Of a stretch of DNA of 64,000 nt, positions 15,217 to 43,774 are shown one piece after another (the first letter of the stretch is position 1; every line of letters starts with the position of its first letter). The DNA is taken from contig CAIIXF020000001.1 of NCBI GenBank assembly GCA_903813345.2, positions 13,020,001 through 13,084,000 on the forward strand, read 5' to 3'. The position numbers and the translations under genes were made by a program. The stretch is from Owenia fusiformis (lineage: Eukaryota). The notes under the pieces are model-generated. The model was not told where the DNA came from. It did no database searches and saw only the letters and a list, made by a program, of their open reading frames with translations.

Positions 15217-16887
15217 AATTTTTACTTGTTATTAGTCAGCATATGATTAACGATGTTATTGAGTTTTTAGACTGATCAGTCATACTTGCTTGCGTGAGCT
15301 GATTTTATGTTCAGATTTGTTGACACATTCCTTTAACAAGTATAGTAGAAGTAATCAGTCATGTCTAATTCAAATTTTACCTTTTGCGCTTTCTGCTTAT
15401 GAAACATCGTATCTGTATACATAAACAGGTTGATCAATAAATCATGACAATAAGCTTCCATATCACAAGCCCATTAGAGAACTTGCGGTATAGAAGGGTA
15501 GATAGGCAATATAGTTTTGGTCGGGAATACATATACTATGGTGAAATTGACAAAAGTTACTTTTTTTATAACGTCCCGAATAATCTGTTTATGTGTTTCC
15601 AGGCGATCTATTTGACGGATTGATTATAAATTTTCGGGATGTTTCTTTGTACGAAATGTGTATTCTGGGTAAATGTTAAAGCAGCTTTTTTAGATATTCC
15701 GTCAGAAAATCTTATCTTGTCAATGAATTTTGTTTGCTCTTGTAAACTAACTGAATTCAAAGCATGGTTCAAATTGTTGAAGCCATATTGCATTCCATCA
15801 GATGTATAGGATATGTATGTTCTATCAAGGTCAGGATTAGAAAATGTGAAGTTAATTCCAATGAGCGAGTAAACGTTTCTAATCAGCACGCTACTTTTGT
15901 AAAAGTCACGCTATGGTGATCAATGGCATGTACTTGTCATGTCCATCTTGTGCTTGTCAATAAAAGAAGCGAGAAGATCGTAATGATGTCATGCCAAATT
16001 GTTGAATGTCATTCTTATAATAGCATGACTTGGAATCGGAAGATTTGACAGTTATGGCGGATCAAGCTATTTCTATCGCACCCTTGGGTGCTATATTGTA
16101 ATCAATTTACCGGGCGAACGGATGGGATGTCGAGCGTTCCACTAATTTTGTGTTTCCAGGCAAACCGTTAAACAGATTTATTTATTAATGGATTCATGGT
16201 CATTCTTTTGCATTTTGGGTGGATGTTAAGGCGGCCATTTTGGATTTTGGAGCTGGCAACAAAATTTTAAATCATATGAAATCATATACAAGTATAATTA
16301 GACTTTGGCGTTAAAAATGAAATGAAATCAATTTAATTATCCCAAGTAGGTGAATCATGTAACTATGTTTTATAAGGCCTAATTAATTACAAAATACTCA
16401 CAACAGGCGGTAATACATACTTCAAATAAAATAAATTAATTATCCTGGATCTTGGCCACGTATGTATTTCCTTAACCTATATGTGATGACTACTGTTGAT
16501 ATAAACCGTATCAAAAACGGAAATAATTAGTTCTTTGATACTTTTACCTCAAAGAACAGAATTCCTTTACTCCAAGTTACTCAAGTCCGACCAACAGACA
16601 CACAACCAGTTAATACTGGAGAACATATTGACGAGGAAGCATTCTTGAAGCATCACATGGAAATATATCTATATCACTGTGTTGAAACCATTGCTAATAT
16701 TGTATATTCGCTACATAAGATTGTGTATCCGAACGTCTTTTGTCGTCGTTTCAAACTAAAAACAAAAACAGTCGTACGTCCTGTGACAGTATGTAGCTTT
16801 GAACGCACACCCCGGACTAACAACTTTCTTTATTCAGATCTTTCATAAAGAAAAATTGAACGTACAAAACGGATCATTGACGTGAAA

Positions 16888-19800
16888 ATGAACAAGTTTG
16901 TTTTTATTATCTTAATCGTCTCAGTACTCTACGCTCGTGGAAAAGAGGATTTGCTAAACATAAAGGTTGGGTTGTTACTACCAAGGACAGGCTCTCTGGA
17001 CTATCTAGGATGGGAAACGAACGCTGCAGCAACAACCATGGCAATTGAGAAGGCTCGCATAGACGGCATCTATGATCCAGAACGTGTTAATGTTTCGTAA
17101 GTTTTTCACTTCGAATCTATTATGATGAATTATGATGATGAACTTGAATATTCAAATTGTGTTTAAAAAATTACAAGCCCATAAAGTATATATAAAGGTA
17201 AACTTACATTATGATATAAAAAAGATTACTGATACAAATACTTAGCAGAACCTAGGGTATAAAACGAAAAATAGCCAAGATTTTGACTTCATTGACACTG
17301 AAAGTAGACCCCAAAATTAATGATACAGAAACAAACCTTCGAGAGATTATTATTCAGAGTAGCTTGGCGAGATACAAAGTGCTGGGAAAGACATGGAATT
17401 GGGGCAGCTGTTGAACTGTTCAGATACGAAAATGTATCTGCTTTCGTTGGTCCTGCGTGTTCTGAAGGTATATTGAATGGGTTGGGGAACGGGTCTCCTC
17501 TGCTTGCCATCATGTTAAGGGAGAAACGAATGCTACAGATGAGGTGGCATCCATTCTGCTTGTCTCGTTGGATTCAATATGATCTGACTGTTAGTTTTGC
17601 CAATAAGAGGAGACCCCTGTGTCTGTATCTGTGTTTCCTGATGATATGACATTATCATCAAGATTATATTCAGTCGATGTATCTATTAAAATTGACTTTC
17701 AGTATAGACTTCAGGGATACCAAGTGTTGGGAGAGGCATGGTATAGGTGCTGCAGTCACCCTCTACAGGGAAGCCAATGTTGACGCGTTTATAGGCCCCG
17801 CGTGTTCCGAAGGTATCCATGATGTTGCAATCATTGCTTCATACAAGACAAAGTTCACTTAAAACATGATTCACATTCTAGGTCGCAAAATACAACATAG
17901 TAGTATTAGTATTCACAAATTGGCCCTGCTATATGATCGAATTGCTGAAATTCGTTCTTCTTGTATACGTGATCTTTTATGCTCTGAAAATCAGCCTTTT
18001 CGGTCGGTCTTTAAACAAATTTCAACATACCCGATACGTGAAATGAATACATACGTACAAAGAAGGTTAAGTGCTTGTATTTTGCGAACCAGTCTGAGTC
18101 ATGTTATTTTTATTCTCAAAAAATCTTACAATATACTTGTTAAATTTACAGAATTCAATACGTAGATACGCGCTGTAACGAGAGGGAGGGAATAGGAAAA
18201 GCGGTTGAACTTTACCGACACGACAACATTGATGCGTTTATCGGGCCCGCTTGCTCATCTCGTGGGTAACCTCTTGTCTCCCAACCACTGAGTGATATAT
18301 TGTATAACACGTAGTCTAATCAAACAAAATAACTAATGAATATGTATATACAACGAAATATTCTGTAACTAATATGTAACTCAATAATTTCAATGATGTT
18401 TAAAAGTAATTTTAACTGAAATTATTTCGTTTTAATCAGCAATCTATTGTATATAATATATATGTATATATAACAAGGCATGGGTAAAACAATACATTAC
18501 CAATTTAGAAGTTTTAGAAATGTGAGATTTTTTGAGTGCATCCAATAGTTGTACGGGAAAAATGAGTAACATTTTATCGAATTAGTTAGTATGACACAGA
18601 GGAACTTCACCTCTACCTATAATTCATAAAAATACATTTGCACCAGAAAAAACTTTAAACATTTAATTAAATTTGAATAAATATAAATAAATTAATATAA
18701 AGGATTTTAAATTGCGTATCTTAAGCTGCCGTTCCAGTGGGTCATTTAGCCTCATTTTGGAACATCCCAATGTTTGGACATGCCTCAACGGATCCGGTAT
18801 TATCCAACAAAAGACTCTTCACAACTCTTCTCCGCCTGCTTCCACCCTACAACAAAATGGGATCAGCGTTCGTTGAAATCTTTAAGTTTTATGGATGGAG
18901 ACGGTGTGTGATGCTAACAACACGCCTGGCGTCCTTGATGAGTGAAGCGTCAAGATCTGTTTTACAAAAGTTTCGGGAGTTTAACATCACACTGGCAGAT
19001 TTCATTGAAGTTAATAGTAATCTTGATGACAGCGATATTGATGATTATTTGAGAAGATTTCAACATCGGGGAAGAAGTAAGTCGGCTTTTTCTTCAGTTG
19101 ATCATTTTAACATGGCCATTTTCAATTGTGTGGGTAAGCTATATAGTTGAAATCAAAATGAATTTCAAGTACTTGTTTTGATAACATTCTAGCAGTATTC
19201 TCTAAAGCAAATGAAGGAATTACTCTTCTTGGTCTTGCCAACTCCACTTACGACCATTTACTCACATCCTGATACATAGCGTTCTTATTTTCGCAGTTAT
19301 CGTATTGCTGTTAACTACAAATGATATCAGACGAGTCATGGTCCGCGCAAGACATATGGGACTGACGAACGGAGATTATGTCTTCTTGACTACACTTTAT
19401 ATTCTGCCAACTGACGAGGTCTTGCGTCCATGGGTAGCTAACAATACCGGCGATTTTGGAGCCAAAGATGCATTTCAATCTCTATTACACGTGAGACACA
19501 AAATTTATTTTTCTTCTTTTTACGTGTTCTTATAACTCATTAAATTCAGGTGTGATTACATTTTGTGTCTTACTTATCAAATGATGATGATATTTCTAGG
19601 TCACTGTTGCATCTGTGAAAACACCAAAATCAGATGCGTTCCGTGAACAAATGGCGACTGAAATGCGCAAACCTCCTTGGAACTGGAACACTAACATTTT
19701 CGGCGGGGACATCAAGGTTTATAATTCAACAATCTTTTGCTAATTATAACTCAGGATCACAAATTTTTGATAAAAGTCCTTCACATGTTACGTCCGATTT

Positions 19801-22800
19801 TTAACAATGTTTGAGAAAATCCCTTCACACTTAACCTCTGATTCTTAACAATGTTTGAGAAAATTCCTCCACGTGTAACCTCCGATTCTTTACAATGTTT
19901 GAGAAAGTTCCTCAAGATTTAACCTTCAATCCTTTACAATGTTTGATTAAAGTCGTCCACATTAAACATCCGATTCTGTATTTAATGTTTGATACAAGTC
20001 CTCCACAATCCACATGTAACCTCCGACTCATTGCAATATTTGATAAAAGTCTTCCACATGTAACCTCCGATTCTTAACAATGTTTGATAAATGCCCTCCA
20101 CATGTAACCTCCGATTCTTTACGATGTTTGATAAAAGGCCAGATGTATATATTTAAAATGTTTAGCATTACTTTTAGAATATAGTCGTCTGTCAAGCATA
20201 TGTTCCCGTTGGGTGGGGAAGTAAAAATGGCCACTACGAATTTTTTTATATTTTTATTCTTGCAGAATAAAGTACATTCTTGTACATTAAATTATAATGA
20301 CTGTCACCCTGTTGAAACAAAGAACCTGCCTTGATAACACTTTTCAAACCCCATTCACAATATAATTAAAATGATACATTGACATTGCAGCTATTCAATA
20401 CACATTTGAAAATGTGTACATGTATATTTACCCACTCTGTAGTTCCCTTTATATTTAAAACGGGTGTAGGCTTTAACATAAAAACTAGTGCAAGGTAGAA
20501 TCAATATGCGTTTTAAATACTATATTTATGCTTGGAATTGCTGCAGGAGGTATATATAACTATTTTGTAAATAGAAGTAAAGAAATATTTATATTTATTA
20601 AAATATATTAAAGTTATTTCTAACCTTTTAATTTAGTTTTCTTTTCAAAAGACTTCTGTAAAGTAGAGTTACTGGAGTATTCGTCACATGTGCGCATGTG
20701 TCGTTTCCTTTGAATGTTCCGACCATTCTTTACAATGTTTGATAAAAGTCCACCACATGTAATCTCCGTTCTTTACAATGTTTGATAAAATCCCTCCATA
20801 TGTAATCTCCGTTTCTTTGCAATGTTTGATAGAAGTCCTTCGCGTGTAACCTTCGATCCCTCCATATGTAACCTCCATGTCTTTACAATGTTTGATAAAA
20901 GTCATCCACGTGTTACCTCCGACTTTCTTTGTTTGATAAAAGCTTTCCATGTGTAACTTCCGATCCGTTACAATGTTTGATAAAAGCTAAGGCCTCCACA
21001 TGTAACCTCCGATTATATTATTAATGACAACTATATTTTGTTATATCCGTGGCCAAGAGGATACTTGAGTTCAAATACAATGCAAAATATTCCACAGTAG
21101 TAAACTGGCGTGAAATATCGAGGTGCTATGGCAAGGATAGTATTTTATTACTGAATTCCACAAGTAACCTATATTTTAGGGTTCGATGTTTTCCCTGTTT
21201 CTCCACGATGCTGTCTATCTCTATCTTCTCGCCTTGAACGCTACGATTTCAAACGGTTTAGACTATAAAAATGGATCCATGATATTCGCCATGGCAAAAG
21301 AAATGGAATTTGACGGTATTTATAATTTACTCTATTTGCAATCTTCATTTACTCAACTAAACAATGGTTCCTTAACCTTTGTTCATTGTTTAGGCTGTTG
21401 GGGCTTGTTTTCTTACAACTGGCTGTGCTTTTCAATAATTCTTTACGGCCCAAATTATATTTCCTTAAGATGTAATTGTTTGTTTTTCACATTTGTATTT
21501 ACACATTTTCACAATACAATGAAGAAATCATGCATAATCCTAATTTCCCATGTCAACGGGTCCAATATAATATAAAAAATGAAATGAAACAATACCAGGA
21601 CGGAATGAGGGTCACTATAAAATGATAGCATCAAATCAAATTGAATTAAATTTCCCAGGAATGAGTGGTAGGGTAGTGCTTGATGATCAGGGAGAGAGGG
21701 AACCTGACTTCTGGATCTGGCAACTTCCCCCAGGGAAAGATGAGTTCGAATACATGGCAGAAGTGAAAAACACTGGAAAAGAAGGCCAGGTTAGAAATTT
21801 GACATTTTAATATTTAATATTTTGGGTAAATCAGGATGATCATCTGCCATGCCATGTGTCCCTTGATCTGGGAATATTGATCCATTGCGCCCATAAATGT
21901 CAGAATGTGTCAGATTTGTAAATTAATGCGCCGTGTAAAATGAAAACCCCAGGATGAACTCACATTATGATGATAATGGTGATATGCAAATGTCATTCAG
22001 ATGTATGTATATGTAAACTTCCAACATTTCCATAAGAATATAGTCTCCTGCCGAGTATGTGATCCTATATGATGGGTCAATTGTTAAATAATTATTAAAT
22101 AATTGACCCAAATAATTTTTACTTTCTTGTACATATCAAAAATGTCAATCTCGTGAAACAAATTAAGAACATGTCTTGATAACATTTACTTTTGTGTCCA
22201 AACGCTTAATATTTAAACCCCATACAATATATGATTATAATGATAAATCGACCTTAACTGAAGCTTTCTTATTTTTATTTTCAAATCTGAATTTTACTGC
22301 CGTTTCCTTTAAACGTGTGTAGCCTATTACAGAAAACTGATGGAAGATAGGATTAATCAATATACATTTTAGATACTATATCCACACGCAGCGATGCAAG
22401 GTGTGTCCAATTTCAACCAATCAGAACACGCTACTTCATATAACTGCATTGCATTATATAGCTAACAACCCACCCAAGGTCATTTATAGATTCTAGTGAA
22501 ACTAATGAAACTGATAAGCTGATCAATTTCATAGTCGAGTAAAAATATAATACAGTATCATATCATGTTTATTATAATAGGGAATAACCTGCAAAGTGCT
22601 TGTGCAGGTCAAATGGTAAGTATTAAATGGTTGTCAAGGTGACAAGTTGTCTCGTACAAAATATATATTTGAAAATATATTCCTTTTAGTCATTTCGTAT
22701 CTTTTAAGTGATGTTGTAAGGAACATTTTGCGATGTGTGAAAAGAATTTAAGCCCAAGACGCATTGCATTGTGGCTTATTCATTCCATTCATTCAGGCGT

Positions 22801-25800
22801 TATTTCCTAAACACCTTAGAGGAATGATTATAATCAGTCTACAATGCACTGAATCTAGGGTTTAAATTCTCAATTTATTTTTGGAATTGCTGCAGGAGGT
22901 ATATATAATTATTTTGTAAATAGAAGTAGATAATTCCTTAAATTCATTAAAATATAAAAATGTTAAAGTTTATTTCAAACCTTTGATTTAGTCCTCTTCA
23001 AAGGGTTCGTGTCTCTTAGAATTGCATTAGTCACATGTGCGCATGCGTGTTTTCCTTCAAATGTTCCAGCGAGTCCATGTTCTGAACAAGCCCTATTGGC
23101 AAACGAAGGATGGTAGTGTTCCGCTAGACACCCCAGCGTGTGGGTTTTTTAATGAAAAATGTCTGGAAGAGGAACAAAACAGAGGTAATTTATTTACATG
23201 TAAAATGTGTATATTGATTAATTCACATAGCGTTAGAGTTACTGCTTAAATAATCCTTTAGCTCATCAAGGAACACTTATATTATCCCTATTAGTGTTTT
23301 GTTCTAGTCATCTTGGAATAGATACTCGTTCTTTGCTTCAGGGCTTGATATTGCCATTATTATGATAGTTGGTGGAGCTGCCGTGTTGTGTATGATGTTG
23401 ACAGGGGGATATCTACTATACAGGTACTTTGCATTGGGAAATTATTGTCGATTTAAGTGGGATTTTACATGACTGTTATATATTTAAGTCTCTATACTTA
23501 AATATTTGTATTTGTTTGTATACTAAACAATAATAATTATTATTCTATTCAGACGGAGGAGAAATGAGGGTGAAGACGAGATGATGTCATGGAAGATCGA
23601 GTATGAAGATTTGAAGTTCAATGTAAAAGTAAAGAAAGGAATCGGAAGTACTGCTACCAAATCAACCGGAAGTCAGGTGTGCAATTTAAATTGTTAGAAC
23701 GCTGTAATCTAATCTTATCAGTAATGTGCAAATTCAACAGATTTAGTTGAGAAACATGTCAAGATACAAACTATGATTGTTAATCTAAAATAGTGTGTAT
23801 ATGTGTTTCAAAAACATTCATTTCACTTTTTGACAATTACACTGTAGATGTCTAAAAGCAATCTAGACAATCGTTCCAAGAGTAATAACAGCTCTTCGCA
23901 CGTCGATCAGTCCAGTCAGGAAGGCGTGACGAGCCAGGAGAGGCAAGATAGAACTGTTGGAATGTATAAAACAGTGACTGTATGGGTGAAATACATCCAC
24001 GCTGGAATACTTCTCACCAAAGAAGACCACAAGGAACTCAAAGTGGTAACTGCGGTTATGATTATTAACTAAATAGTAACGTTAGCAACTGAATGAATAA
24101 TGAAACACCACTGAGTAAAAATTACGTAAAAGTCATGATACATAAAAGCAAAAGTAGTAAAAGTATTGAACATTTACACTATTTATATAATTTTTGTGTT
24201 TTTAGATGAAAGACTTGAGTCATGAGAATGTTAACCAGTTTGTCGGAGTTTGTATCGTTCCACCAAAAGTTTGCATTTGCTTCGCATTTGCCGCTAAGAG
24301 AAGTCTGCAGGTGAAACTATGAATATAATTTATATAAGTCTATATGTACATCCCATAAATGGCTGACCATTATACACAAGCGTTATATTGTGCACATTTT
24401 TAAAAAAGCATGTGAATGTATTCTATGTAACTAATGAATGGTTGACATTGTAGGACATCATTTCTAATGAGGACATCAAACTGGATTGGATGTTTAAACA
24501 GTCACTAATCTCAGACATCGTCAATGTATGTATTTATGTTCCTCTTAAAACCAATGTGCACGATGTTAACAAAGTAACTATAGAATCCTTCCAAGTCATC
24601 CTCCGAACGCAGGGTTCCAGACATCATCCACTAAGTTCCTTCCTTCTTCTAGAAGAAGGAGGTATGACTTCTGGAGGCCTGTGTTTGGAGGATGTTCGAA
24701 GTAAGTGTTTCAATTCTTTTGGACAAAAGCAGTGCAAAGGCTAATTACATAATGATGATTTAAAAGAAACAATTCATATCGGTAGTTCTTACGTGAGCAA
24801 TTTCAGTAAAATAAAATATCATCAAAATTATTTTAATTTCAAAGGGTATGGAGTATATCCATGGCTCATTGTTGGTCTCCAATGGTAATCTGAAGAGTAG
24901 CAATGTTGTTATTGATGGTCGTTGGATGCTCAAGATATCTGACTATGGTCTACAGTCTTTTCGGATGGCCACTGCCAGAAAGAATTCAAAGGGCGAATTC
25001 GCAGCATATTATGGTTTGTAGACTATATTGAATAATGTGCGTGCAAACAAATAATATTATTATGATATTAATATTTTAATTGGTATGCCGATCTATGAAA
25101 ATATGTTTGATTACTTTGAACTAATTCTATTTTTGCTTTCAGCAAAGCTGTGGCGAGCTCCCGAGCTGCTGAGGATGGCAAACGCTCCACAAAAAGGAAC
25201 TCAAAAGGGAGACATTTATAGCTTTGCCATCATTCTGCAAGAAATAATATTTCGCACTGGACCCTATCATCAGACTGAAATCCACCCAAAAGGTATTTTA
25301 TTCACTATGCAGAGTTGCAGACCGCCATTATACCTATATACAGAGGGTGGGCCAAAAAAAACCAATACCCAACTTCAAATCAGGATAAAAATAGTTGCAT
25401 TCAATATGATACATTGACCTACATATCATTTTAAAGGTTATACAATTTCAAATAATTTGATATATAACACTATGTCATGAAATCAATAGTACAGTTTTAT
25501 TATACTTATTTGGGAGGCCGGGTTGCTATTTGGGGTCTCTAGATTTTAGGGAGAAAATAGTAAATCTGCGGGATTTTGTTAATTTTTTTTATAGAAAATT
25601 ATTCTTTTGTTAGGTGAATACATGCTTGGATATTGATATTTGCATCATTGTGTGACTAAATTTATTGTTTATGAATTTCAGTGTTGTTTAATAACATTTT
25701 ACACTTTATTTATTTAAACAATTTTAACAATTGCTCAATGTACCCCACCCCCTCCCCTCTGAATCAACAATAAGCTTCAAGTGGTAGCGCAATCTATCAA

Positions 25801-28800
25801 TAGCCTTATTGAGAGATTTCTGTTGCAATTCCTTTCAGCACTTTAGGATTTTGTTTCAGCTCATCAATGCTGTTTATTGGATACTTTTAATTGTACCATT
25901 TCTTCGAGATGGCTCCATGTATGGTAATCAAACACATTAGCATCGGGGCTGTTGGGTGGCCAAGCATCGAGATCAATCAAATTGACACCTTGTTTGCAAA
26001 GAAATGCCAATGTCTCCTTTGATCTATGGTACGAGGCAATGTCTTGTAGGAAAATAAAATCCTCGTCACATATACGTTTAATTTCTTTTAACAGACCCCC
26101 TTTGAGTACTTATTGATAATAAACAACACTAAAATTCATAAACAATAAGTTAAGTCACACAATATGCAAATATACAAGCATGTATTCACCTAACAAAATG
26201 ATATTCTATAAATAAAAAATTAACATTATTCCGCAGATTTACTATTTTCTCCCTAAAATCTGGATACCTTAAATACCGACCCGGCCTCCCAAATAAGCAT
26301 GATAAAACTTTAATATTGATTTCATGACATAGTGTTATATACCAAATTGTTCGAAAATGGATTACCTTTAAAATGATATATAAATCAATGTAACATATTG
26401 AACATAGCTATTTTTATTCTGATTTAAAGTTGGGTATTGTTTTTTTTGGCCCACCCTGTAAATTGAAAGATTCGGATGTCTTTTTGAGTAGTTTCTACTA
26501 GTGATAGTGATCAATTTTATTTTGAACTGTTTTAGCATGTTAAGCGTGCATTGTATGTGATTTGTGCAGATATCGTAGGGAGGGTTGCTCGAGGTGATAA
26601 CCCACCATATCGACCTGATGTACCTGCAACGTCCGAAGAGGGAAACACTGCGATAGCCATGATAGAACTTATGCGAAACTGCTGGCATGAAAACCCAGAC
26701 TATCGCCCTTCTTTTACTGACATTAAGAAACAGATGACAAGTGAAAATCGGGGCAGGTGAGTCTAACATATACTTGATAAACTTTATTTTGTATTTAGAA
26801 ATTGTTGGTCGAGTAGCAAGGGGGGATAATCCACCATATCGACCTTTGATGCCAATGGATGCAGATATTAACATCAATATGGTTGAGATGATGCGAACCT
26901 GTTGGCATGAAAATCCATTTTATCGACCAAGCTTCGTTGACATAAAGAAACAATTGAAATCATTTGATCAAGGAAAGTAAGTATAGAAAACAGTCTACAT
27001 TTTAGTGTTAATGGTTTTGGTCTTTTTGGATTGACAGCGTTCGTACCTGGGTTTACCCTTGTTTTCCATTCATTCGATCTTTGTTATCGTAACATTGGGT
27101 AATTGGGTACTGTTAATCTTGATGATATGTTTCTGCACGTGTAGGAAGTATAATATCATGGACAAGATGCTGATGAAAATGGAAGCTTATGCGAATAACC
27201 TTGAAGAAGTTGTGGAGCACAGAACACAGGAACTGATGGAGGAGAAGAAGAAGACTGATACACTGTTATACAGAATGTTGCCGGGGTAAGAATCCAGAAA
27301 CACCTCTCTGGCTTTCATTGTCTCGTGGTCGGACATTTCATTTCAAGTATGTGAGGCATATAATGATAAGATGGTATGGCCTCGATGTGTTTACACTCTC
27401 CCATGTATACCGTTCCGTATTAGTGAAATTGTTGACATTAATACGGAATAAATCATACCATTTCATGAAAAATGGTGACCTTGTCCTACGGAAATTGAGA
27501 TTATGTTTCACAGCAAGTTCGCACGGCGATACTGTATAGCACATGCTCTGGGGAATTGATTCTACTTTCTATAGACACCAATCACATCTCTGTCAATATA
27601 ATAATAAAAAAGCCTTAGGGTCCCAACCTCCTTTGTTTACATTTACAAAAATCTGAAAAAATGACAAAAGTTGCCATAACTTTTTAAATCTAAATCTGTT
27701 GAAACCGATTTCACTTGCTTGCGACAGATACTTTAGTCCTTCACGAACCGAACATGTCAGTTTGGTTCGTAATATCTACAAATAAACGATTTCAACATTT
27801 TGAAAAACTCGATGCTAGTCCACGTGTTAATACGGAATGGGTGTTAAATCGTATACATTCCCGGGGAAATCACAATTTCCACAAAGCTTGCAATGATGCA
27901 TCTTATTGCATGCAAATGGCACGTTAATCAACAGCGTCAACACGTCCGTCAATCGCAAGGATCGAATGTACATAAACAGTGTTCTCTTTTTCTTAAAGGC
28001 CCCATGTAAAGTTTAAACCACTTTGGCTTATATTGTAGTCTTACCCAATGTTATCAAAGTGTGATATGTGAAACTTTTTTTTTAAATTTCAAAAAGTGGT
28101 TTTTGATAGACTTTGTGTTCCAAAATTTGTGAATTTATTTAAAACCAACTTTTAGAGGTCACTCATATCTTGTTATTAGCCACAATTCATACCAATGCAT
28201 AGCATTCATCCTCCCATGTTTTTTGCAGAAAAAATTAAGAAAATCGGTTGATAAACAAGCGAGAAATGAACTTATCAGTGCATGAAAATGGTTCTGAGAA
28301 AAATGCATTTCAAAATTTTAGTTCTCATAGAAACCAATGGTACAATGATATCTAAAACATAATTTATTCTTCCTTTTAACCTGGTTAGACAATCAATATT
28401 GTTTTTTTTATGAAAGTTTAGCATATTTAGAAAAGATTGATATCGAAAAAAAAAATTCAATTTTTTTCAAAAAGTTTTTGTTACCTTAGTGACATCACTA
28501 ATGTTTCAAAATATTTTTGATAAGCTAAAACATTGAAGTGGCCCATTAAATATGACATTTTATTATTGAAATAGTGTGTCTTTTGTTCAATCTTTGCATT
28601 GGTGTTAAAAAGATAATCTTTTTTGAAATGCATTAAGAAATATTTGATGATTAAGAAATTTCAACTTTTTTTGAAAAATGGCGGGAAATTTGAATATTTG
28701 AGAAATGAAATGCTCACAACTTTTTTTTCCAAAATTGTTTTTTGTTCAAAAATCTCTAAAACCACTTTTTAAGTCCTGACAAATAGTAAATGAATGATAA

Positions 28801-31800
28801 AAAAATATTTTCAAACTTTAGACGGGGACTTTAAGTATTTAAAGATACATGTAAGTTGTCCATCGACGGCGTCAACGTGATAGCTTTACGCCCATTAATA
28901 GTATAGATAGGTTGTTGTGCCTTTTCTTATTGCATCTAATAGGTATTAGTTTTACCGACGGCTACAACGTATGTCCTGGATCCAAGCAACGTGTTTGTTT
29001 TGTATTTAAGAATTGCTATAGCCATGGGATGGTCTCGCGTGGGGTATTTTTTGGGGTGCACAAGAAAACCCCACGAAAGTCCCGGTAGGTGTATATTATT
29101 AGGTACTTTGTGAACGTGTTGAGTTGTTTTCTTACCTGCCGATTCCCCCAACACGTTCCCATTACACCAGAGGATGATTGAAGTGTTAAAAATGGACAGC
29201 CAGCCGCATTGTCTTTGTAAAAGTGGGCAAGACCACAACAAAAGTCTTTTGATTTTTCCGACATTTTCATTCAAAAACGTGGTTGACGCCACATTTTAGA
29301 AAGACAATTAGTACTAAATGAGAATAGCTGTCCATTCCAGTCTAGTGCTGGCACTTAGATGATTTTCTTGCCAAGGTTGTGGTACATTCTTCAAACCGAC
29401 ATGACACTCTTACCCTCTCCATGACAATGAAGTTATAATTGAAACTAAATGCCCATGCTACTGAAACCCGTATTCAAGGTATTATGTTTAATACCCCGGG
29501 TTAAAACATACTAATATTGTACAACACTACTAATTATCTTAATTGCTTCATTTCATTCACGAGTGTACAGTTTCGTTCATTGAGTTTACCTATCGAGTCG
29601 ACCAATTCCGTATTAACACGTGGACTAGCATCGAGTTTTTTAAAATGTTGAAATCGTTTATTTGGAGATATTACGAACCAAACTGACATGTTTGGTTCGT
29701 CAACGACTAAAGTATCTGTCGCTGGCAAGTGAAATCGGTTTCAATAGTTTAAGATTTAAAAAGTTATGACAACTTTTGTAATTTTTTCACGTTTTTGTAA
29801 ATGTAAACAAAGGAGGTTGGGACCCTAAGGCTTTTTTATTATTCTATCGACAGCGATGTGATTGATGTCTATAGAAAGTAGAATCAATTCCCCAGAGCAT
29901 GTGCTATACAGTATCGCCGTGCGAACTTGCTGTGAAACATAATCTCAATTTCCGTAGGACAAGGTCACCATTTTTCATGAAATGGTATGATTTATTCCGT
30001 ATTAATGTCAACAATTTCACTAATACGGAACGGTATACATGAGAGAGTGTTTATATTTGATGCTATAACCGTTTTGTTCACACATTTGAAGTATATGAGG
30101 CATATAATGATCAGAGGGTACAGCCTCGAAGTGCTTCTATTATACTAAAATCTCTTTGTTTACACATTTTAGACCTATTGCTGAGAGTTTGAAGACTGGG
30201 AAATCTGTCCACCCAGAACTATATGATACAGTGACTGTTTTCTTCTCAGATATAGTGGGCTTTACAAGGTTATGCTCAAAAAGTACACCATTACAGATCG
30301 TCACTCTTCTTAATGACCTTTATACACTTTTCGATGATGTCATTGCCAAATATGATGTATATAAGGTACACTAATCTGAACATTTTATTTCAATGTTATG
30401 TCTGTTTTGGCATGTCTTATAAACTGCCAATCATGCAAGCATGCTTGAAATGCAAAACTACTCAATGCGGTCCATCAACTACATCAAGGATCATCGAAAC
30501 CGGTGGAAGCAAAATACATTGATTAAGGGGGTGGGTATTTGAATTGTCAGTTATATGTATTGTTGTCTATGGGGTCATTTATCTAGGTGGAAACTATAGG
30601 AGATGCCTATATGTGTGTGAGTGGACTACCTCTACGAAATGGTAACAAACACGTTGCTGAAATAGCAGACATGGCCCTCGACTTGCTCAGTTCTATAGCT
30701 TCTTTCAAGATCAGGCACAGACCAAATAAACAGCTACAGGTATGAAAACTCCCGCAATTCCGGGACTACTCTGTCGGGATCAAGATAAGATTTGATCCTA
30801 TGTTTCAAATTATAGTGTCTATAAGGATTTGTCATTTATTCCGTGTACTGGTAGAAGTGCATTGGACATTATAAGCCCCAAAGATACAAAATGATGCCTT
30901 TTTATTTGAGTTGGGCTGATGTTCAGAAGTTATCATTTATTATTTTAGATTTGTTTCTTTTAACGTTTTACATGATACATGGATATGGACCATATTTTCA
31001 TTTTCATCCCTTTTACCATGTTTTTACAATATTCATTAAGGCTAGGATAGGGATCCACACCGGCCCATGTGCAGCAGGTGTTGTTGGGACACAGATGCCT
31101 CGGTACTGTCTATTTGGTGACACTGTCAATATGGCATCCACTATGGAATCAACAGGGGAAGGTAAAATAGGTTTAACAATAACATCTTATGAAATAGAAC
31201 GCTATTTAACACATTATCTCCAGTATGGCATTATTTTTGCTTCTTTATTCATTAAATTCAAATATATTCGATATATGAAACATTCATATTCGCTAAATCA
31301 TTTTTCCATTCGGTAAAAACGTTTATATGTTTGTTACAGCAAATTAAGTTTTCAAAATAGCCAATCACTTAATACTATGTGCATTAAATTACATATTTCA
31401 TTCGTTAAATGATTTTTTTGCGTAAATTGTTATGGTATTCCTTAAGAGTAACACATTATATGCACAATATTGAATTTTTATTTGAACCCTACCGAAATAA
31501 GTTTGCCTATATTTACCAAATGGTTTATTTTTCTATGACATAGTTAATGCATTTTACCGAAAACTGTTTTGCTATTTACCGAAAGCTAATTTGCTATTTA
31601 CCGAATGCAATAAAGTAATATTCGATAACTTGCGTTGTGGTTCGATATTTTGTCACGTGACTTCGAGATTTGCAAAATGGCCGCGCAGCTATTCTACATC
31701 GTACAAATATATCACGTGACTGAAAGTCTCGTAAATTATCGAAAAATAACGAAATTTATCGAATGTGGCATTCGGTATTTACCGAATATAAATAATTTAA

Positions 31801-33215
31801 ATACCGAATGTACAAATAATTAATTGAATTATACGTGCGTTAAGGAAAACAAATTGATTCGCTGCATCACACAAATACATGTATACATATCAAATGTGAA
31901 TGTCAATACAAAGAACAAGTGAAACTATTTAGCGAATATAAATTGTATAGATTATTACATTTGATAAAATAAAAAAACATTCGATAGATTGGGTAAAGGT
32001 TTGGTAAATTGTTTGTTTTATTTGGTATTTATGGAATATTGATGTACCGAATAAAGAAGCAGTTTAAACATCATATTCCAGTTGTGATTGTCTAGAATGT
32101 GATCAGACCCTGGGGATCAGATCCCACATGTTCCCATCGTATGCCTGGACCAATCGGTGCACATGGATATTGCCTTTCTGCACTATAAATATTCCTTTGT
32201 ACTAATTTAGTGTCAAGGCTATTCCAAAGAATTCATCCTCATGCAATTTATGAGAAGAATAAATAATGTTTTAATGGTTGTAGCATTACGTATACAGATG
32301 AGCCAGGAGGCAGTAGATGTTCTCTTGGAACACACAGGCTACATGGTGAAGGAAAGAGGCGATGTGGAAGTAAGAGTAGGTGTCCTATTATGTATTTTCG
32401 AATCGTTTCCTTTTCGTTGTCTGTATCATAAATACAAAGCTTTTGATGTATCATTCATAGAGAACAATTGAAAAATATGAATTTTTATAGGATATTAATT
32501 AGTCTATTTATCATCTGCTTCATCTATGTAGGGAAAGGGAAATCTGACGACCTATTGGTTGACTGGTAAACGGGGTTTCCACAAGCCGCTCCCCAAACTC
32601 AGTGTTGACTTGTAAGTTATACACAGATCGTGATCACTTATTTGATGTACTGGCCCTTTTAGCATGTTTTTTGATATAGTCAATCACTTTATACAACAGT
32701 TATATTAAGGATGTTCAGGGGACAAACTTTGTTTTAAATAGTATTTCAACATAATATTTGGTAAGCACATGGGCTACAAATATGTAAGGGCTAGTATCAG
32801 AAAATTTCCAGAGAACATCCTTAATTTGCAATATTTGATCATATGAATATTTTGGTTATTGGAAAAAAATGAATATTTTGGTTATGTAGGCGGTTGAAAT
32901 AGAACAAAAGGCCTACTTCCATTTTCAGGCCTCATATGATTGTTGAGGAAATTGATGACTTGACAGGTCAGTATCAACGAGTTGAAATCCTTCCACGTTT
33001 TTTTCTAAAAGTTTTATAAAGTGATTGTTCAACTAATGACTAAATCATATTCTGTCTTGCAATGTGGATATTTAATTTTATAAAGTCAATAAGTATTTAA
33101 GAGATATATCATTTGAAACTTGATTAAATGGAACTTACACGCTTTACAAAAGAATTTAATCTTAATTGATTTTGAATTATAAATCTTAACCCTTTCAGAT
33201 CAAGTGGTGACATGA
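16888..33215 (+). CDS. Receptor (membrane) guanylyl cyclase, natriuretic peptide receptor type: signal peptide, extracellular ligand-binding domain, TM helix, kinase-homology domain, coiled coil, cyclase domain
   Basis: Exons: 16888-17096; [17358-17467 | 17703-17812 | 18152-18261]; 18726-19076; 19297-19490; 19600-19716; 21180-21315; 21659-21789; 23070-23184; 23342-23423 (TM); 23553-23676; 23848-24045; 24206-24310; 24454-24525; 24845-25013; 25143-25292; [26570-26756 | 26799-26976]; 27145-27285; 30173-30365 (FSDIVGFT); 30587-30739 (VETIGDAY); 31041-31161 ([12 protein letters not shown]); 32284-32375; 32532-32611 (GKG..TYWL); tentative last exons 32929-32966 and 33199-33215. All splice phases are consistent. 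Confidence 0.93.
17358..17467 (+). CDS. Guanylyl cyclase exon 2a (mutually exclusive candidate)
   Basis: 110 nt, AG..GT, phase 2-1; [36 protein letters not shown]. Confidence 0.85.
17703..17812 (+). CDS. Guanylyl cyclase exon 2b (mutually exclusive candidate)
   Basis: 110 nt, AG..GT, phase 2-1; [36 protein letters not shown]. Confidence 0.85.
18152..18261 (+). CDS. Guanylyl cyclase exon 2c (mutually exclusive candidate; absent from the ORF track)
   Basis: 110 nt, tttacAG..GTgggt, phase 2-1; [36 protein letters not shown]. Confidence 0.82.
19765..20135. repeat. ~39-bp minisatellite in a guanylyl cyclase intron; second array at ~20723-21012
   Basis: Repeated unit of the form ttgataaaagtcctccacatgtaacctccgattctttacaatgt with substitutions. 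Confidence 0.85.
25341..26458 (-). mobile_element. Tc1/mariner deletion derivative with long TIRs and a DD37D (maT-type) transposase relic
   Basis: TA|cag(a)gggtgggccaaaa ... ttttggcccaccctg|TA with ~350-bp inverted arms. Minus strand ~26110-25890 reads [38 protein letters not shown], with 37 residues between the two Asp. Confidence 0.85.
26570..26756 (+). CDS. Guanylyl cyclase kinase-homology exon 16a (mutually exclusive candidate)
   Basis: 187 nt, phase 1-2; [31 protein letters not shown]. Confidence 0.85.
26799..26976 (+). CDS. Guanylyl cyclase kinase-homology exon 16b (mutually exclusive candidate)
   Basis: 178 nt, phase 1-2; [31 protein letters not shown]. Confidence 0.85.
27394..30049. 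mobile_element. Large fold-back element, Chapaev-like (CAC..GTG, 4-bp TSD)
   Basis: About 440-bp near-identical inverted arms (27394-~27838 and ~29606-30049); TSD TTTA at 27390-27393 and 30050-30053. No transposase recognised. Confidence 0.75.
27997..28830. mobile_element. Kolobok-like MITE nested in the fold-back element
   Basis: TTAA|aggccccatgtaaagttt ... aaactttagacggggact|TTAA. Confidence 0.7.
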
Positions 33216-34133
33216 ATGGACGTATGACTCAAGATAGTGACTGATGTCATAAAACATGACAGTTCCTTCCAAGGGATTAAATTTAATGAGGTTGGAAATA
33301 ATCACGGCTTGATGAAGCAAGATTTGTAATCTTAGAAACGAAATCACCGAAACATCGTCGCCTGACAATGTAATACCAGAATCAGTCATCCTGGAAGAGA
33401 CAAAGACTGTCATTGTTTTTTACATTTACAGTTTCCGGGGAGTGAATTTTATCTTATATGTATTATATGACAGACTATTGTGCAAGATATTAGTAGTAGG
33501 TAGAAAGTATTCTGTTCGTTAATCTTAAAATATTTTATTGGCATTCCTAAACAGCACAAGTTTAAAAAATGAACTATACTACTCCGTAAAATTATGGTGT
33601 AATTTAGTACAAAAATAATCTACATACATTAAAGGAATGTACCACTTTTTGAACACCCTGTTTTTAAACGTTATTGTTATATTATGTTTTCTAAGTTCTA
33701 CGAGATGAGCGTGTTTATTTAGGTTTAACGCCAAAGATTCTGTTGAATCTTTGAAAGATTTTTAAACTCTTATTAAATAGGTACGAATTATTGTGAATGG
33801 TACATTTTGTTTAGTGTTTGTTAATCAATGTAGTCGACGTATTTTATCGTAATTAAACGATTTTTTAATTGTAAAATGATGTTATTACTAGAACATTGCT
33901 CAATCATTAAATGTGCTAATTACTATATGGAAATGTGCAATTTAAAACAAATTAAACATCACTTAGTGAGCGTTTATTGCATGTTCTTATGTATGTTATA
34001 AATTCATTATCATGTCGATATATTGATACAAAACTATTTTAGATGGAAGTTATTTCCTGTTTAAATATTCGCTAAACTAACTTCGCTGTCGACTTTCAGC
34101 TCTGATATGTGCTATGTACACTTCCCTCAATAA

Positions 34134-37900: not shown

Positions 37901-40900
37901 ATGGATATATGGATTTTGTTATCGTCTGCATTTTCTATTGCATTATGGGGCATTGTCTCTTCGTCAGGTATGTCTGTTTCAATAATCTCAAATTGTATTT
38001 ATGGATATGACTTAGGCCTGTAATCTGCAGCAATACTGTATACTTGTATCAAGACATGTTCTACATGCCCATTGAATGATTTAAAGCATCTTTTTGCATC
38101 CACGCTAGAAATCACCAAAATTCTTATTGAATTGGCATTACAGAGAACAAGATGTTCTGTTACTACAGTAGCTTCGCCATCAACAGATCAGGCAAGGCTA
38201 AGTTCCTCCCCGAACACATCAACCCTTATCTCTGCACTCATATCATTTACGCATTTGCTGACGTGGTCGATGGTAGAGATCTGAGGCCATCGGCTAAGGA
38301 TGACGTTAGCAATAAAGGTATACAGTGTAAATATTGTAATTTTTTTAACACAAATAATGTGTTGTTCTTAAATGTAATAACACGATTAATTTTTAGAAAA
38401 TGTTGATTTTCAGTGTTTGCATATTATAGATAACAAAGCTATATAGGAATCTGATATGATTAAACTTACCAGCCCAATGCTTCCGAGTCGGAGTTTACTT
38501 ACAAATGAATTGTATCCATGTTCCAGATATTCATTCAGATATTTCCCAAGTTAATTTAGTGTTAGAGAATAATATGTTGGTTTTGCATATAAATACGATA
38601 TTTTTCGGTAGAACAAATGTTCTTCTTCAGCCATGCTATAACTATATACGAACATGAATCACATTATTAAAACAAGGTACATCTTTTAGGATTATACTAC
38701 AGGACAATGGGTCTGAAGAAGTTAAATCCAGAACTAAAGGTCCTGTTGGCAGTAGGGGGTTGGTTTGTCGGTTCAAAACCATTCATTCCTATCTTGCAGT
38801 CCGACTCCAATCGTTTGGCATTTGTTGCCAACGTAATTGCCTACCTAAGAAAGGTACGTAGGTTGGCATTTTTGTCATATTTTTGAAAATGTTGTTATTC
38901 AGTAAAAGCCAAGTCGCAAGATAGCAGATAAGCGGCATTTAAAAAACATTTGAATTAAAGTTCTCTATGTTAATTCCCGATGACACAAAATATTGCAGAT
39001 TCATTCCAAATTGATTTTAAAATTACAATTTGATTTCTAATTCTTTCGCTCTCTTCAGTATAACTTTGATGGCCTGGATATGGACTGGGAGTTTCCAGGG
39101 GCACGAGGAAGTCCTGAATCTGACAAGCATCGTTTCACTCTCCTGATGAAGGTACATGGATTTAAAATACCTGTCACATTTACAGTGTGGGCTCACCGTT
39201 TGCCACCATGTGGCTGATTCTCCAGAATTTTTATTAATGCCCAGGCATTAATCTTTTAATTAATCAATTGCCATAATTTTTGTATTTGGTGTGATGGGGG
39301 ATATCTTGCTTTAAAAATATTTATTTTACCCATCATGTACCCATGCCGAATCCCATCGTCTGCCCAAAAATATTCACACGGTTGAAAAAATTGTGTCAAA
39401 GCCCAATGTGACAGCTCCATAAACACAAATCCATTAATACAAGTTAGAATATGTTCTCTCGTTTGAAAATATTATGATAGCGTTTATAGTCATCTTAAAC
39501 GAAACATGCTTGATAATTTATAATCAATACTGTTGTGATAGTGTTTTCCAATAGATTAATTGTTGGCGCATTAAATTCAAAACTTTGTCCATTTGATTTA
39601 CAGGATCTCCAAGATTCATTCCGAGAAGAGTCAAAGTCTAGTGGTAGAGAAAAACTTCTGTTAACCATGGCAACCGCCGGAGGGATGTACTTTATCAGTA
39701 AATCGTACGATCCACCACGGTTGATACCGTAAGTAAAATCAACGTTCAAACAGATACTTATAACATTACTTCTGCACTAATATCTGATAACTATTGATTT
39801 TTATAAAAAGTAATTGATCAAAAAATATCAAAGTCATATTTCATTTCGATCATATTATCTCGGCCAGCCCTCAATTAATCGAATAAGAAACAATAGGCCA
39901 ATGGGTCAATGGAAGTTTATTTTTTGCGTAAATATCATTTCCGACATTGAGTTTGAAACAAACCACTGGCAATTGCAGGTTTCACAGTTGATTACCATGA
40001 ACAATTCCAAAGTTGCATACGCTGAATTTGATCTTTAGATGTTTTAAATGTTAAGCAAGAGGGAAAATTTTCCGGATTTTTCGGATTTTGATTATTTTAG
40101 ATAGGTTTGTAGCTGCTTTTTCTCTCTTCAAGGGTAACAATATAAAAATGCAACCTTTTTAAAGTGCTTTGTTACATGAAAAATCCTCATCGAAGAAAGT
40201 CATTGGCATCTGAAAATATTGCCAGATTTACAATACTGAGTTTGCTACATTTTGCTGGAATGCATCGGTAGTAGCCAGCGTGGTACATTATGAGGTGTAA
40301 GCTAATTTATAAATAGACATAAGACACATCTAACTCATCTTTCTTATAATTTTTAGTTTTTATTGCCTTATGGCAGATAATATCTTCTGCGCCGGCTATT
40401 CTATTTGACCTACTTTCTGAACTTTCTCGCCTTTTTGGAACTTTCTTGATTTCTGTCGGCAGTTTTGAAAGATTGAAACTGGCAAAGAAGAAAAACTTCC
40501 CCCACAATATGTTTGTAATAGAAATTCATTATTTCTAAATAATGGTAATTTCCTACTTTTTTGATTTAGTCATTTTTTTATCGAAAATTAATTACTTTCA
40601 GTCACATCGACTACCTGTTACTAATGGCCTACAACTATCATGGGAGCTGGGAGGATAGGACTGGGCATCACAGCGGTAGCCACCCCCGGGCACAGGAAGT
40701 GGGGCCTGAGAGGCAGTTAAACCAGGTTAGTCACTATATCTGGAACAGGCGTAAAATATTGGATGTGCTTACCTCATTATAAAATACTTCTTTGACTCCA
40801 CCAAAATGAATTACAGAAAATGGTAGCGGTACTAGCTGCGGAATATCTCTCGAGAGCCCTGTCTTTGGAGGATGCTTTTATATTATTAATGGTTGAAATT

Positions 40901-43774
40901 TATCAGCTTTTCAGGTTTATGGCTAATTGTGTACTGGATATGATTTGTCAATTAATGAGTCGACTGTCTTAATAAATGCAAAACGATCAATTGAATTTAT
41001 CGATATATTTTATAAGGATGAGTTATTATAAGATTGACAAGCATTGAACATTTAAATCTTCTCGAAAATAAATAAAAAATCTCTAACGATACTATTGTTT
41101 AAGGATTTAAGCCATGGACTCAGTGCATTGTTTGCTGAATCATTGTTTCTAAACCTTTGCATGACCGCGCAGCGGGAATGCAACGTTTAGGAAACAACGC
41201 CTGAGTGGAATGAAGTCTTGGGCTTAAATTCTTTTCACACATTGCAATTTTTCTACAAAATCATCCAAAAGGAACGAAATCACCAAAATAACACATTTTC
41301 AATGAATTTTTTTGCAAGGGTCAAGTTGGCAAGTCATCAAATCCAAGGTGAAAAGTCCATTCATCAACATGACATCTGTTTAACAAGTGACCTTGCATGT
41401 GCTATTGATATTTCACACACTGTTCTATCTGTGAAATACTATTTGGCTGGAATCGGACACACCTTGCCTAGCTATGTGTGAATAGTGTCTTAAAGTTATA
41501 AACTCAGGACTCCGTACATATTGTTCAGTGTGACAATGGAATAGAATGACAAGATACAAGGTGGCGTCTAGAAAATAAAATTTTAAGTGCTCTAACTGTA
41601 TTCAATGGATTTCATGTTTTGTTGTAAACCACCAAATATCTACCAAAATATAGCTGCCTTTCTGTCAGGAATATACAATTAATGGAATTAATTAATTAAT
41701 GAAAATATCAAAGCTTCTGCTTGAAAGAATTGCTTATATCACACAAAAACCTCAAGCCGTGGGTGTAGACCACAGAAAGCATTAACGAGCATTTGATAGT
41801 TTTTTGTAATTTTGGGATCAAAGTTTGAGAGATCTTTCGCTCATATTATTTTGTGTAATAATTTTTTTTGTAAATCAAAAAGTTCATACCTCAAGAGCTA
41901 TAAACAGTATATCTTTTCATTTCAGCAATGGACAATTGACTACTGGTTAGAGCAAGGTGCCAGTCAGGACAAATTGATCGTTGGCATAGCAACGTATGGA
42001 ATGACTTTCACGTTGGCGGATGCAAATCAAAATGGTGTAAATGCAAGTGCAACCGGGGGTGGAAAGAAGGGAAAATATACAAAAGAAGAGGGCATACTTT
42101 CGTACTTCGAGGTAAAATTCAACAAAGCAATATTTTGTATAGCTGCATTTTAAAGAGTTCAGTTAAGAACGTCCCTCTCCGAAAAGGCATTTACAAATCG
42201 AGTAATGCCAAATATTATTTATGTTCCAGATATGTGATTATATGAAATATGGGATGAAAACTGTTTGGATGGATGAGCAAATGGCGCCTTATGGTTACCA
42301 TAACAACCTGTGGGTTGGCTATGACAACCAGGAGAGTATCACCTACAAGGTTCGTTACAATGGTTTTGAACATATTTGTACTACATTTACTAATAATATT
42401 ATGTAATTATCATCGTCTTTTTTAGCCTAATTGAGTTTGTAACATAGAATCATAGATTGGTTTTGAATTTTTCCTTTAGATATGGTATGAACTAAGACTG
42501 AAACAAGTTTTTCCAGATATCAAACTCATTCTCTTTTGTTCGGTTCTTTGATTTTAAATCGGTTTATTGTAGGCCAATAACATCAGGAACAGAGGCTTAG
42601 GCGGGGCATTTATTTGGTCGGTGGAAATGGATGACTTCAATGGAAAATCATGTAACCAAGGCAGATATCCACTCCTTTCGACAATAGCAGAGATCCTTAG
42701 ACCACAATCGGTGAAGACGTACATACCAAGATTCCCTCGTCCGAATAGGCGAACCACTTTACAACCTGGCCAGAGGACGCTAAGGCCAACACCAAGGAAG
42801 GTTAGACCAACTAAGAATAAAGTAAGACCTCGTTCTCGAACAAATGCTATCCCTGAAAGACCCAAAACTGACAGCCAGAATGCTAACGGTGTAAAAACAG
42901 CCAAATCCGACTCAGCTGACAACATGAGGGAACTGACTTCCAAAAAGGAAGGAGATCCCGATATGGTAACAGACGAAGAGAATGGCGACAGTCGGATTTC
43001 TCATCGAGGGGGAAATAACAAATATCAACGAACGAGAACTATTCCTACTGAAAACGAAGATGATACAGAATCAAAACAGATTAAAACAGGTACGAGATCA
43101 AAAATCGAAAGATTAGACAATAAACTTTTAGAGGATGAGCAAAGCGTCCATGTTATAAAAAAGAAAAAGACTCCAATTGAAAACACAAAACCTTCAACTC
43201 ATGATCAAAATACTGAAAGTGAGTCTAAAGTTAAACGAAAGGATGGAAAACGGATACGAGTTCGACTCAGAAAGAATAAAACTGGGGAGAAAAATAGTAT
43301 TCCTGACAATTTGTCAAGTTCAGCTCCATATATGCCCGATGCGTCCTCCACCTCATTTACCGTATTAACGATATTGATGGCACAATATTGCATTTATATT
43401 TAACCTATAAAAAGTTGAAAAACAACCATTTCATTATTTGTATTTTCTACGTGTTTTCCAACAAGTTTGTAATACTACTGTACATATATTATATTGATAC
43501 CAGACGAAATAAATAACTGTTTACTATTAATCATAAAGTTTGTTATAAAACTATACAAACAACACAATCATTTATAAATTGTGAAAAACATATTTTATTT
43601 TCAGGCAAATTCGTTTGCCCAACTGCTGGTTTTTATAAAGACACCCTAGACTGTGGTAAATATTACATCTGCTTGAACATGGGGAATAAATATCGCCAGT
43701 TTCACCTTTCTTGTCCCCGGGATCTTAGGTGGGATAATACCCTACAGATTTGCACTTATAAGCATGGTTGCTGA
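37901..43774 (+). CDS. GH18 chitinase with a long charged/Pro-Arg linker and a C-terminal CBM14 (ChtBD2) exon; alternative read-through C-terminus ends at 43403
   Basis: Exons: 37901-37967 (signal peptide), 38144-38317 ([10 protein letters not shown]), 38690-38853 (KVLLAVGGW), 39059-39151 ([11 protein letters not shown], catalytic DxxDxDxE intact), 39604-39728, 40602-40725, 41926-42111, 42230-42349, 42573-43089 or -43218 (or read-through to stop 43403), 43605-43774 (six-Cys [29 protein letters not shown]). Confidence 0.93.

Follow-up and report, generated by a model that had tools for sequence, protein, structure and literature searches.

Introduction

Mutually exclusive exons that arose by tandem duplication are known from Drosophila Dscam1, Mhc and 14-3-3zeta and from C. 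elegans let-2 and unc-32. In the receptors FGFR1-3, the mutually exclusive exons IIIb and IIIc swap the extracellular half-domain that contacts the ligand, and thereby set ligand specificity. Here we describe a locus of the early-branching annelid Owenia fusiformis, located in a 64,000-nucleotide (nt) stretch of contig CAIIXF020000001.1 (assembly GCA_903813345.2, positions 13,020,001 to 13,084,000 of the forward strand; hereafter the window, in whose coordinates all positions are given). A gene for a receptor guanylyl cyclase carries there three tandem versions of its second exon, termed 2a, 2b and 2c. We propose, with a probability of about 0.7, that they form a mutually exclusive exon cluster derived from tandem duplication; the proposal is drawn from sequence evolution and frame logic, not from transcripts.

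Mutually exclusive exons have been described before in annelids. One study names exons 6a/6e of coq-2 as well as mrp-1 (PMC7434440), and another gives the muscle myosin heavy chain as a case (PMC3912159). With respect to receptor guanylyl cyclases, splice isoforms of mammalian NPR-A/GC-A are described as producing no cyclic GMP (cGMP) of their own and as impairing the wild-type receptor when co-expressed (PMC10665444). For mouse NPR2, one "mutually exclusive" event assigned by rMATS is listed, which is a computational category and not a cluster of duplicated exons (PMC9031102).

The Owenia locus shares with the known tandem-duplicate clusters adjacent homologous exons of equal length and phase with their own splice sites, a length not divisible by three, and purifying selection. 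It differs from them in its gene family, which is new for this device within the literature searched, in having three variants only, and in being known here at the level of sequence. As in FGFR1-3, the product is a single-pass receptor of which part of the extracellular domain would be swapped by exon choice; however, the Owenia module corresponds to the NPR-A region with the chloride site and the helix of the dimer contact, whereas the FGFR half-domain contacts the ligand. The mammalian NPR-A isoforms are likewise splice forms of a receptor guanylyl cyclase, and they can combine with the standard form and alter cGMP output; unlike the Owenia exons, they are not homologous tandem exons. No mutually exclusive or tandem exon cluster in a receptor guanylyl cyclase, and nothing pertinent on guanylate cyclase in Owenia fusiformis, was found in the full-text literature, with subscription papers and supplementary tables outside the scope of the search, in agreement with the initial annotation of this DNA, made from the sequence by itself, which knew of no such description. 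The locus is of use more than it is a surprise, given how familiar devices of this type are in general.

Results

Three tandem versions of exon 2 in a receptor guanylyl cyclase gene

The 1091-residue O. fusiformis protein P0001 ("unnamed protein product / Guanylate cyclase") matched the translation of exon 3 at 100% identity (5 hits among 227 candidates). We could place this protein on the window by exact spliced mapping, with GT-AG at every boundary of its 22 introns, which measure 109 to 2887 nt. The features relevant to the exon triplet are as follows.

16888 to 33244, plus strand: coding sequence for the receptor guanylyl cyclase; the annotated form has 23 exons, as given by the exact spliced mapping of P0001 (3276 nt)
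16888 to 17096, plus strand: exon 1, with start codon, signal peptide and the start of the extracellular domain; 2-nt codon overhang at its end, donor GTAAGT
17358 to 17467, plus strand: exon 2a, 110 nt, the copy in the annotated protein and the sole copy with an internal N-V-S sequon (Asn95)
17703 to 17812, plus strand: exon 2b, 110 nt, unannotated; 27 of 36 residues and 71 of 110 nt identical to 2a
18152 to 18261, plus strand: exon 2c, 110 nt, unannotated and most divergent; 21 of 36 residues identical to 2a and 24 of 36 to 2b; in-frame GT donor at the homologous position
18726 to 19076, plus strand: exon 3, constitutive, which takes any single 2a, 2b or 2c in frame

Pfam searches of P0001 identified, in this order, an ANF_receptor domain (PF01094; residues 47 to 395, E-value 8.1e-54), which is a ligand-binding domain of the periplasmic-binding-protein type, a PK_Tyr_Ser-Thr kinase-like domain (564 to 809, E-value 1.8e-31), HNOBA (829 to 870, E-value 1.7e-05) and Guanylate_cyc (878 to 1061, E-value 4e-70). 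A single transmembrane helix, a kinase-homology domain, a coiled-coil linker and a class III cyclase were found in that order, and the AlphaFold2 model of P0001 contains a long helix (residues 457 to 492) between the extracellular and the kinase-like parts. The best solved relatives of P0001 are full-length structures of human NPR1/GC-A (E-value 3.7e-214). From this domain order and these structural relatives we identify the gene, by its sequence, as a natriuretic-peptide-receptor-like membrane guanylyl cyclase. The window consists of animal DNA and has a G+C content of 32 to 41%.

The initial annotation had described three homologous, phase-matched exons of exactly 110 nt with AG/GT ends and open frames, and this description held in every detail. 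AG stands immediately before each copy and GT immediately after it, with GTATAT, GTATCC and GTGGGT as the donors of 2a, 2b and 2c, and each copy is open solely in the frame that links exon 1 to exon 3, the other two frames holding one to three stops. The copies are separated by introns of 235 and 339 nt. A tblastn search with P0001 returned exactly three matches to its residues 65 to 117, namely 2a, 2b and 2c, without any further copy. In the peptide alignment 20 of 36 columns are invariant, including the two motifs that had been noticed in all copies at the outset, D-T-x-C and G-P-A-C-S. The sequon was likewise correctly assigned to 2a as far as the internal site is concerned, which reads N-V-S in 2a, N-V-D in 2b and N-I-D in 2c. 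A second N-V-S sequon, at the junction of exons 1 and 2, is common to all three variants because the split codon encodes Ser each time.

The reading frame allows the inclusion of one copy. Exon 1 leaves two codon bases and exon 3 needs one, and a single 110-nt exon fits between them. Because 110 is not a multiple of three, inclusion of none, of any two or of all three copies leads to a stop codon 200 to 566 nt before the end of exon 3, with 20 further exons downstream. The frame shift that had been anticipated for two copies or none, and for triple inclusion too, thus translates in each case into a premature stop. Stops so far ahead of later junctions typically expose a transcript to nonsense-mediated decay. 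A frame-based route against co-inclusion is present for the triplet, with the decay step itself presumed.

Retention of the three copies as coding exons

We then compared the copies at the nucleotide level. The three pairs are identical at 71 (2a/2b), 61 and 65 of 110 positions, whereas 110-mers picked at random from introns of the region and compared in pairs are identical at 31.1 ± 5.0 positions with a maximum of 51 (n = 16,534). The 80-nt flanks of the copies match at 20 to 27 of 80 positions (25 to 34%), which is the random level, and the similarity of the copies ends exactly at the splice sites. Differences at the first, second and third codon positions number 6, 6 and 27, 14, 9 and 26, and 12, 8 and 25 in the three pairs (chi-square P = 1.6e-5, 0.011 and 0.006). 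For 2a and 2b, 27 of 39 differences fall at third codon positions, in line with the heavy third-position divergence noted in the initial annotation.

Third positions are saturated, with 68 to 73% differing, and the Nei-Gojobori (NG86) correction fails for this reason. Maximum-likelihood estimates of the ratio of nonsynonymous to synonymous substitution (dN/dS) between the copies were 0.026, 0.019 and 0.012, with dN of 0.18 to 0.40. These values of 0.01 to 0.03 are far from the ratio near 1 that the initial annotation had associated with a single copy being in use. We also modelled one copy of each pair as drifting neutrally over its half of the pair divergence. Under this model 37 to 46 of 73 first and second codon positions would be expected to differ; 12, 23 and 20 were observed (binomial P = 6e-16, 1.8e-5 and 2.7e-5). 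The probability that the four splice-site bases survive such drift is 0.02 to 0.06. The saturated third positions, the low dN/dS and the rejection of neutral drift together make it well supported by sequence that the triplication is old and that all three copies have been retained as protein-coding exons.

These data bear directly on a simpler explanation, in which 2a is the copy in use and 2b and 2c are dead relics, that is, pseudo-exons lying in a single 1258-nt intron. Such a view would fit the public annotation, which holds the 2a form only in a cluster of one sequence, the lack of any protein with 2b or 2c among 61 candidates, and the lack of RNA support in samples of 6 to 12% of three runs. 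The flanks, however, have fallen to random identity, yet the exons are still 55 to 65% identical in nucleotides and 58 to 75% in amino acids. AG, GT, length and the sole open frame are intact in all three copies, third positions are saturated at a dN/dS of 0.01 to 0.03, and in each of the three pairs the model with one neutrally drifting copy fails at P ≤ 2.7e-5. We consider dead relics improbable.

The age of the cluster was approached by phylogeny. A maximum-likelihood tree of 25 exon-2-equivalent segments (36 columns), from which the row of Liolophura had been removed beforehand as its protein lacks the region, left 15 of 21 inner branches open, and 2 were well supported. By direct count over the segments, the peptide identity of 2c to 2a and 2b (21 to 24 of 36) is about that of the paralogues to 2a and 2b, so that the cluster may predate the gene family. 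Best-match scores against 154 homologues suggested a resemblance of 2c to other cyclase subfamilies and of 2a to P0010; with 36 residues, this is only a lead. At least three Owenia paralogues of the cyclase were noted (P0002 to P0004), with extracellular domains 54 to 59% identical, and one of them is probably on the same chromosome as this gene. The closest relatives outside Owenia (Ridgeia, Nucella and Mytilus) show 42% identity in the extracellular domain.

Mapping of the exon 2 segment onto NPR-A

The cassette could be aligned gap-free to rat (1dp4) and human (8tg9) NPR-A using phmmer (E-value 1e-29, with low overall identity of the extracellular domains). In this alignment Cys78 and Cys104 correspond to NPR-A Cys60 and Cys86, G-P-A-C corresponds to G-P-G-C, Arg92 to Trp74, residues 93 and 94 to Glu75 and His76, and Asn95 to human Asn77. 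Judged by sequence, both cysteines of the predicted disulfide and the G-P-A-C of the putative chloride loop are found in all of 2a, 2b and 2c. Compared with the NPR-A segment of residues 60 to 87 (with Cys60-Cys86, the chloride site Ser53/Gly85/Cys86 and the Trp74 helix), all three variants keep the cysteines, G-P-x-C and the helix; in contrast, the position of Trp74 is Arg in all three Owenia variants.

Published work on NPR-A places this segment close to the dimer contact. The Cys60-Cys86 disulfide is described as lying within the chloride site close to the dimer interface (PMC4049422). A second study states that the side chains of Trp74 stack across the extracellular dimer, that Trp18, Ser53, Gly85 and Cys86 take part in chloride-mediated bonds, that an antibody bound at the interface drives less signalling once Trp74, Glu75 or His76 is mutated, and that mutation of Asn77 causes signalling loss for an antibody that sits atop the domains near the interface (PMC13230927). 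Together with the gap-free alignment, these studies agree with the initial annotation, according to which the segment spans the first disulfide, the GPGC chloride site and a helix of the dimer interface of NPR-A.

We also inspected an AlphaFold2 model built from 39 homologues, with a mean predicted local distance difference test score of 81.9 and block means of 92 to 96 over residues 61 to 110. The model has a strand at 67 to 75, a helix at 80 to 94 and a strand at 98 to 100, and the helix coincides with the NPR-A helix that bears Trp74, Glu75 and His76. The module of residues 70 to 107 begins in the last part of a beta strand and further contains the predicted first disulfide, a single alpha helix, the strand that follows it and the GPAC loop. 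Fold-determining residues do not differ between the three variants. Around the helix, the variable positions 79, 82, 86, 89 and 93 form an i, i+3, i+7, i+10, i+14 stripe along one helix face; positions 91, 94, 96, 97, 100, 106 and 107 and the strand residues 71 to 74 vary as well. The positions aligned with Glu75 and His76 of NPR-A are among those that differ between the variants, and at the variant positions the 39 homologues, too, show comparatively high variability. The variable stripe may lie beside the dimer contact instead of within it.

In NPR-A the main hormone pocket is found outside the region of the cassette. The function of the exchange would be sought in the dimer contact, in allosteric tuning and in the 2a-only glycan predicted at the domain top, and less in direct ligand specificity.

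A second tandem pair, 16a and 16b

The same gene contains a further duplicated exon, in the part that encodes the kinase-homology domain.

26570 to 26756, plus strand: exon 16a, 187 nt, C-lobe of the kinase-homology domain, in the annotated protein; donor GTGAGT
26757 to 26798, plus strand: 16a/16b spacer, 42 nt, from the 16a donor to the 16b acceptor; below all 22 introns (minimum 109 nt)
26799 to 26976, plus strand: exon 16b, 178 nt, homologous to 16a and equal to it in phase, not annotated; its own AG and GTAAGT, in frame with exon 17

The two exons share 39 of 58 aligned residues, and their differences number 17, 14 and 34 at the first, second and third codon positions. Synonymous sites are saturated, with a maximum-likelihood dN/dS of 0.037. 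Inclusion of 16a and 16b together, inclusion of neither and read-through all lead to stops. Moreover, the two exons cannot be joined by splicing because the 42-nt spacer is shorter than every intron of the gene. They are probably a sterically enforced mutually exclusive pair, as judged from these features. That a separate pair in this gene bears the same signature lends credibility to the mutually exclusive reading of the triplet. With both clusters, up to six isoforms are possible.

Evidence weighing on exclusive use of the triplet

Several observations weigh against a mutually exclusive cluster of 2a, 2b and 2c with the role outlined above. The steric constraint of the 16a/16b type does not apply to the triplet, as the introns of 235 and 339 nt exceed the gene minimum of 109 nt and are long enough for splicing; reading frame and decay would have to provide exclusivity by themselves. 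When docking/selector pairing was assessed for six region pairs among the four introns, 5 to 53 of 100 dinucleotide shuffles reached the observed duplex energy. Samples of three raw Owenia RNA sequencing runs (6 to 12% of each), mapped to positions 16850 to 19500, yielded 0, 0 and 4 reads and no junctions, and one Owenia contig set mapped to the same interval yielded 0 records. A profile of the three peptides, extended by a few in-frame flanking residues to the 40-residue minimum, was run against a collection of 5.8 billion protein sequences, with proteins of 77 to 2000 residues covered; it returned the annotated 2a form only (1 hit among 61 candidates). The triplet is known here from a single genome. 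Finally, the variable stripe and the residue equivalent to Trp74 are set apart by a turn of about 100 degrees on the helix.

Some of these observations would suit a looser arrangement, in which all three copies are functional but are selected stochastically or leakily, and in which the main role of the frame-shifting combinations is to cut receptor output through nonsense-mediated decay. All inclusion patterns but the single one do lead to an early stop, no selector or docking structure was detected among the region pairs assessed, and the inter-copy introns are of normal size. Down-regulation alone, however, does not need three coding copies under strong purifying selection, and it leaves the patterning of the variation on one helix face unexplained. 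We regard leaky choice as unlikely.

The initial annotation had called the triplet a Dscam-style cassette. The tandem exon anatomy and the phase argument are borne out, but the comparison is overstated: the cluster is a small one of three exons and, unlike the Dscam exon-6 type, shows no docking/selector pairing beyond that of shuffled sequences. Short AT-rich inverted repeats occur near the copies, with differing partners, for instance 18115 to 18130 with 18521 to 18536 (16 nt, 94%).

The four reads recovered are two pairs of run X12. They are collinear with the genome over approximately 17117 to 17739 at 95 to 99% identity and run unspliced across introns and exons; they cover exon 2a and extend into the first part of exon 2b. 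Their collinearity from 2a through to the start of 2b speaks against an assembly artefact, in which the triplet would stem from collapsed or mis-joined haplotypes or paralogues. Apart from the existence of three paralogous cyclases in the genome, nothing specific favours such an artefact. The copies are 55 to 65% identical in DNA, well under haplotype-level identity, the intron sequence that separates them, of 235 and 339 nt, is unique, and the peptides of the paralogues differ from every copy. An artefact is very improbable.

Other features of the gene and the window

Weak donors were considered as a mark of regulated exons and rejected, as donors are diverse all along the gene. Intron 17, of 2887 nt, contains a 450-nt inverted repeat (27393 to 27842 and 29601 to 30050; 96% complementary, arms 1758 nt apart), which has the look of a foldback element or one derived from a transposon; in the pre-mRNA it could fold into a long hairpin. 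Intron 5 contains arrays of an approximately 44-nt tandem repeat at 19762 to 20137 and 20726 to 20989, with 72 to 87% matches.

Two further genes were noted in the window.

About 38100 to 43800, plus strand: downstream gene with exon-like open frames that by eye resemble a family-18 chitinase; at its end a low-complexity stretch rich in Lys, Arg, Thr and Pro, followed by a chitin-binding Peritrophin-A domain (CBM_14, E-value 1.8e-08)
About 49000 to 62000, minus strand: multi-exon gene with a thiolase N-terminal domain (PF00108, E-value 1.1e-10 for 54917 to 55261), presumably of the sterol-carrier-protein-x type

Discussion

The mutually exclusive cluster that we propose goes back to an ancient tandem triplication of one coding exon, after which all three copies have been kept as working exons. 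For the present gene we infer that all three copies are used, that they are used exclusively and that other products decay. Splicing would link exon 1 to a single copy and this copy to exon 3, whereas transcripts with none, two or three copies would meet an early stop and would presumably be removed by nonsense-mediated decay. The expected outcome is three receptor isoforms that are identical save for residues 70 to 107. By homology with NPR-A, the swapped module would supply the chloride site together with a portion of the membrane-distal contact between the two extracellular domains. Exon choice may thus act on the pairing of dimers or on the receptor's allosteric set-point, and not on direct contact with the ligand.

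A more far-reaching version would combine the two independent clusters into as many as six isoforms, and would treat the extracellular variants as a pairing code that determines which monomers assemble into active dimers, among products of this gene or with the three paralogues, and in which the 2a glycan blocks some pairings. We hold this version to be doubtful. If it were true, splicing would encode the dimerisation of a single-pass receptor enzyme, and the locus would amount to a natural experiment on the membrane-distal interface and cyclase activity.

Receptor guanylyl cyclases signal as dimers, and both the binding of hormone by NPR-A and its activation are influenced by the membrane-distal contact and by the chloride site close to it. 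If the exon cluster is as proposed, its three natural variants would be a ready-made tool for studying how this interface sets pairing, basal activity and chloride sensitivity. The public annotation of Owenia would then miss isoforms of this receptor. Moreover, a signalling-enzyme family and a little-studied annelid would be added to the genes and organisms in which mutually exclusive exons have generated diversity.

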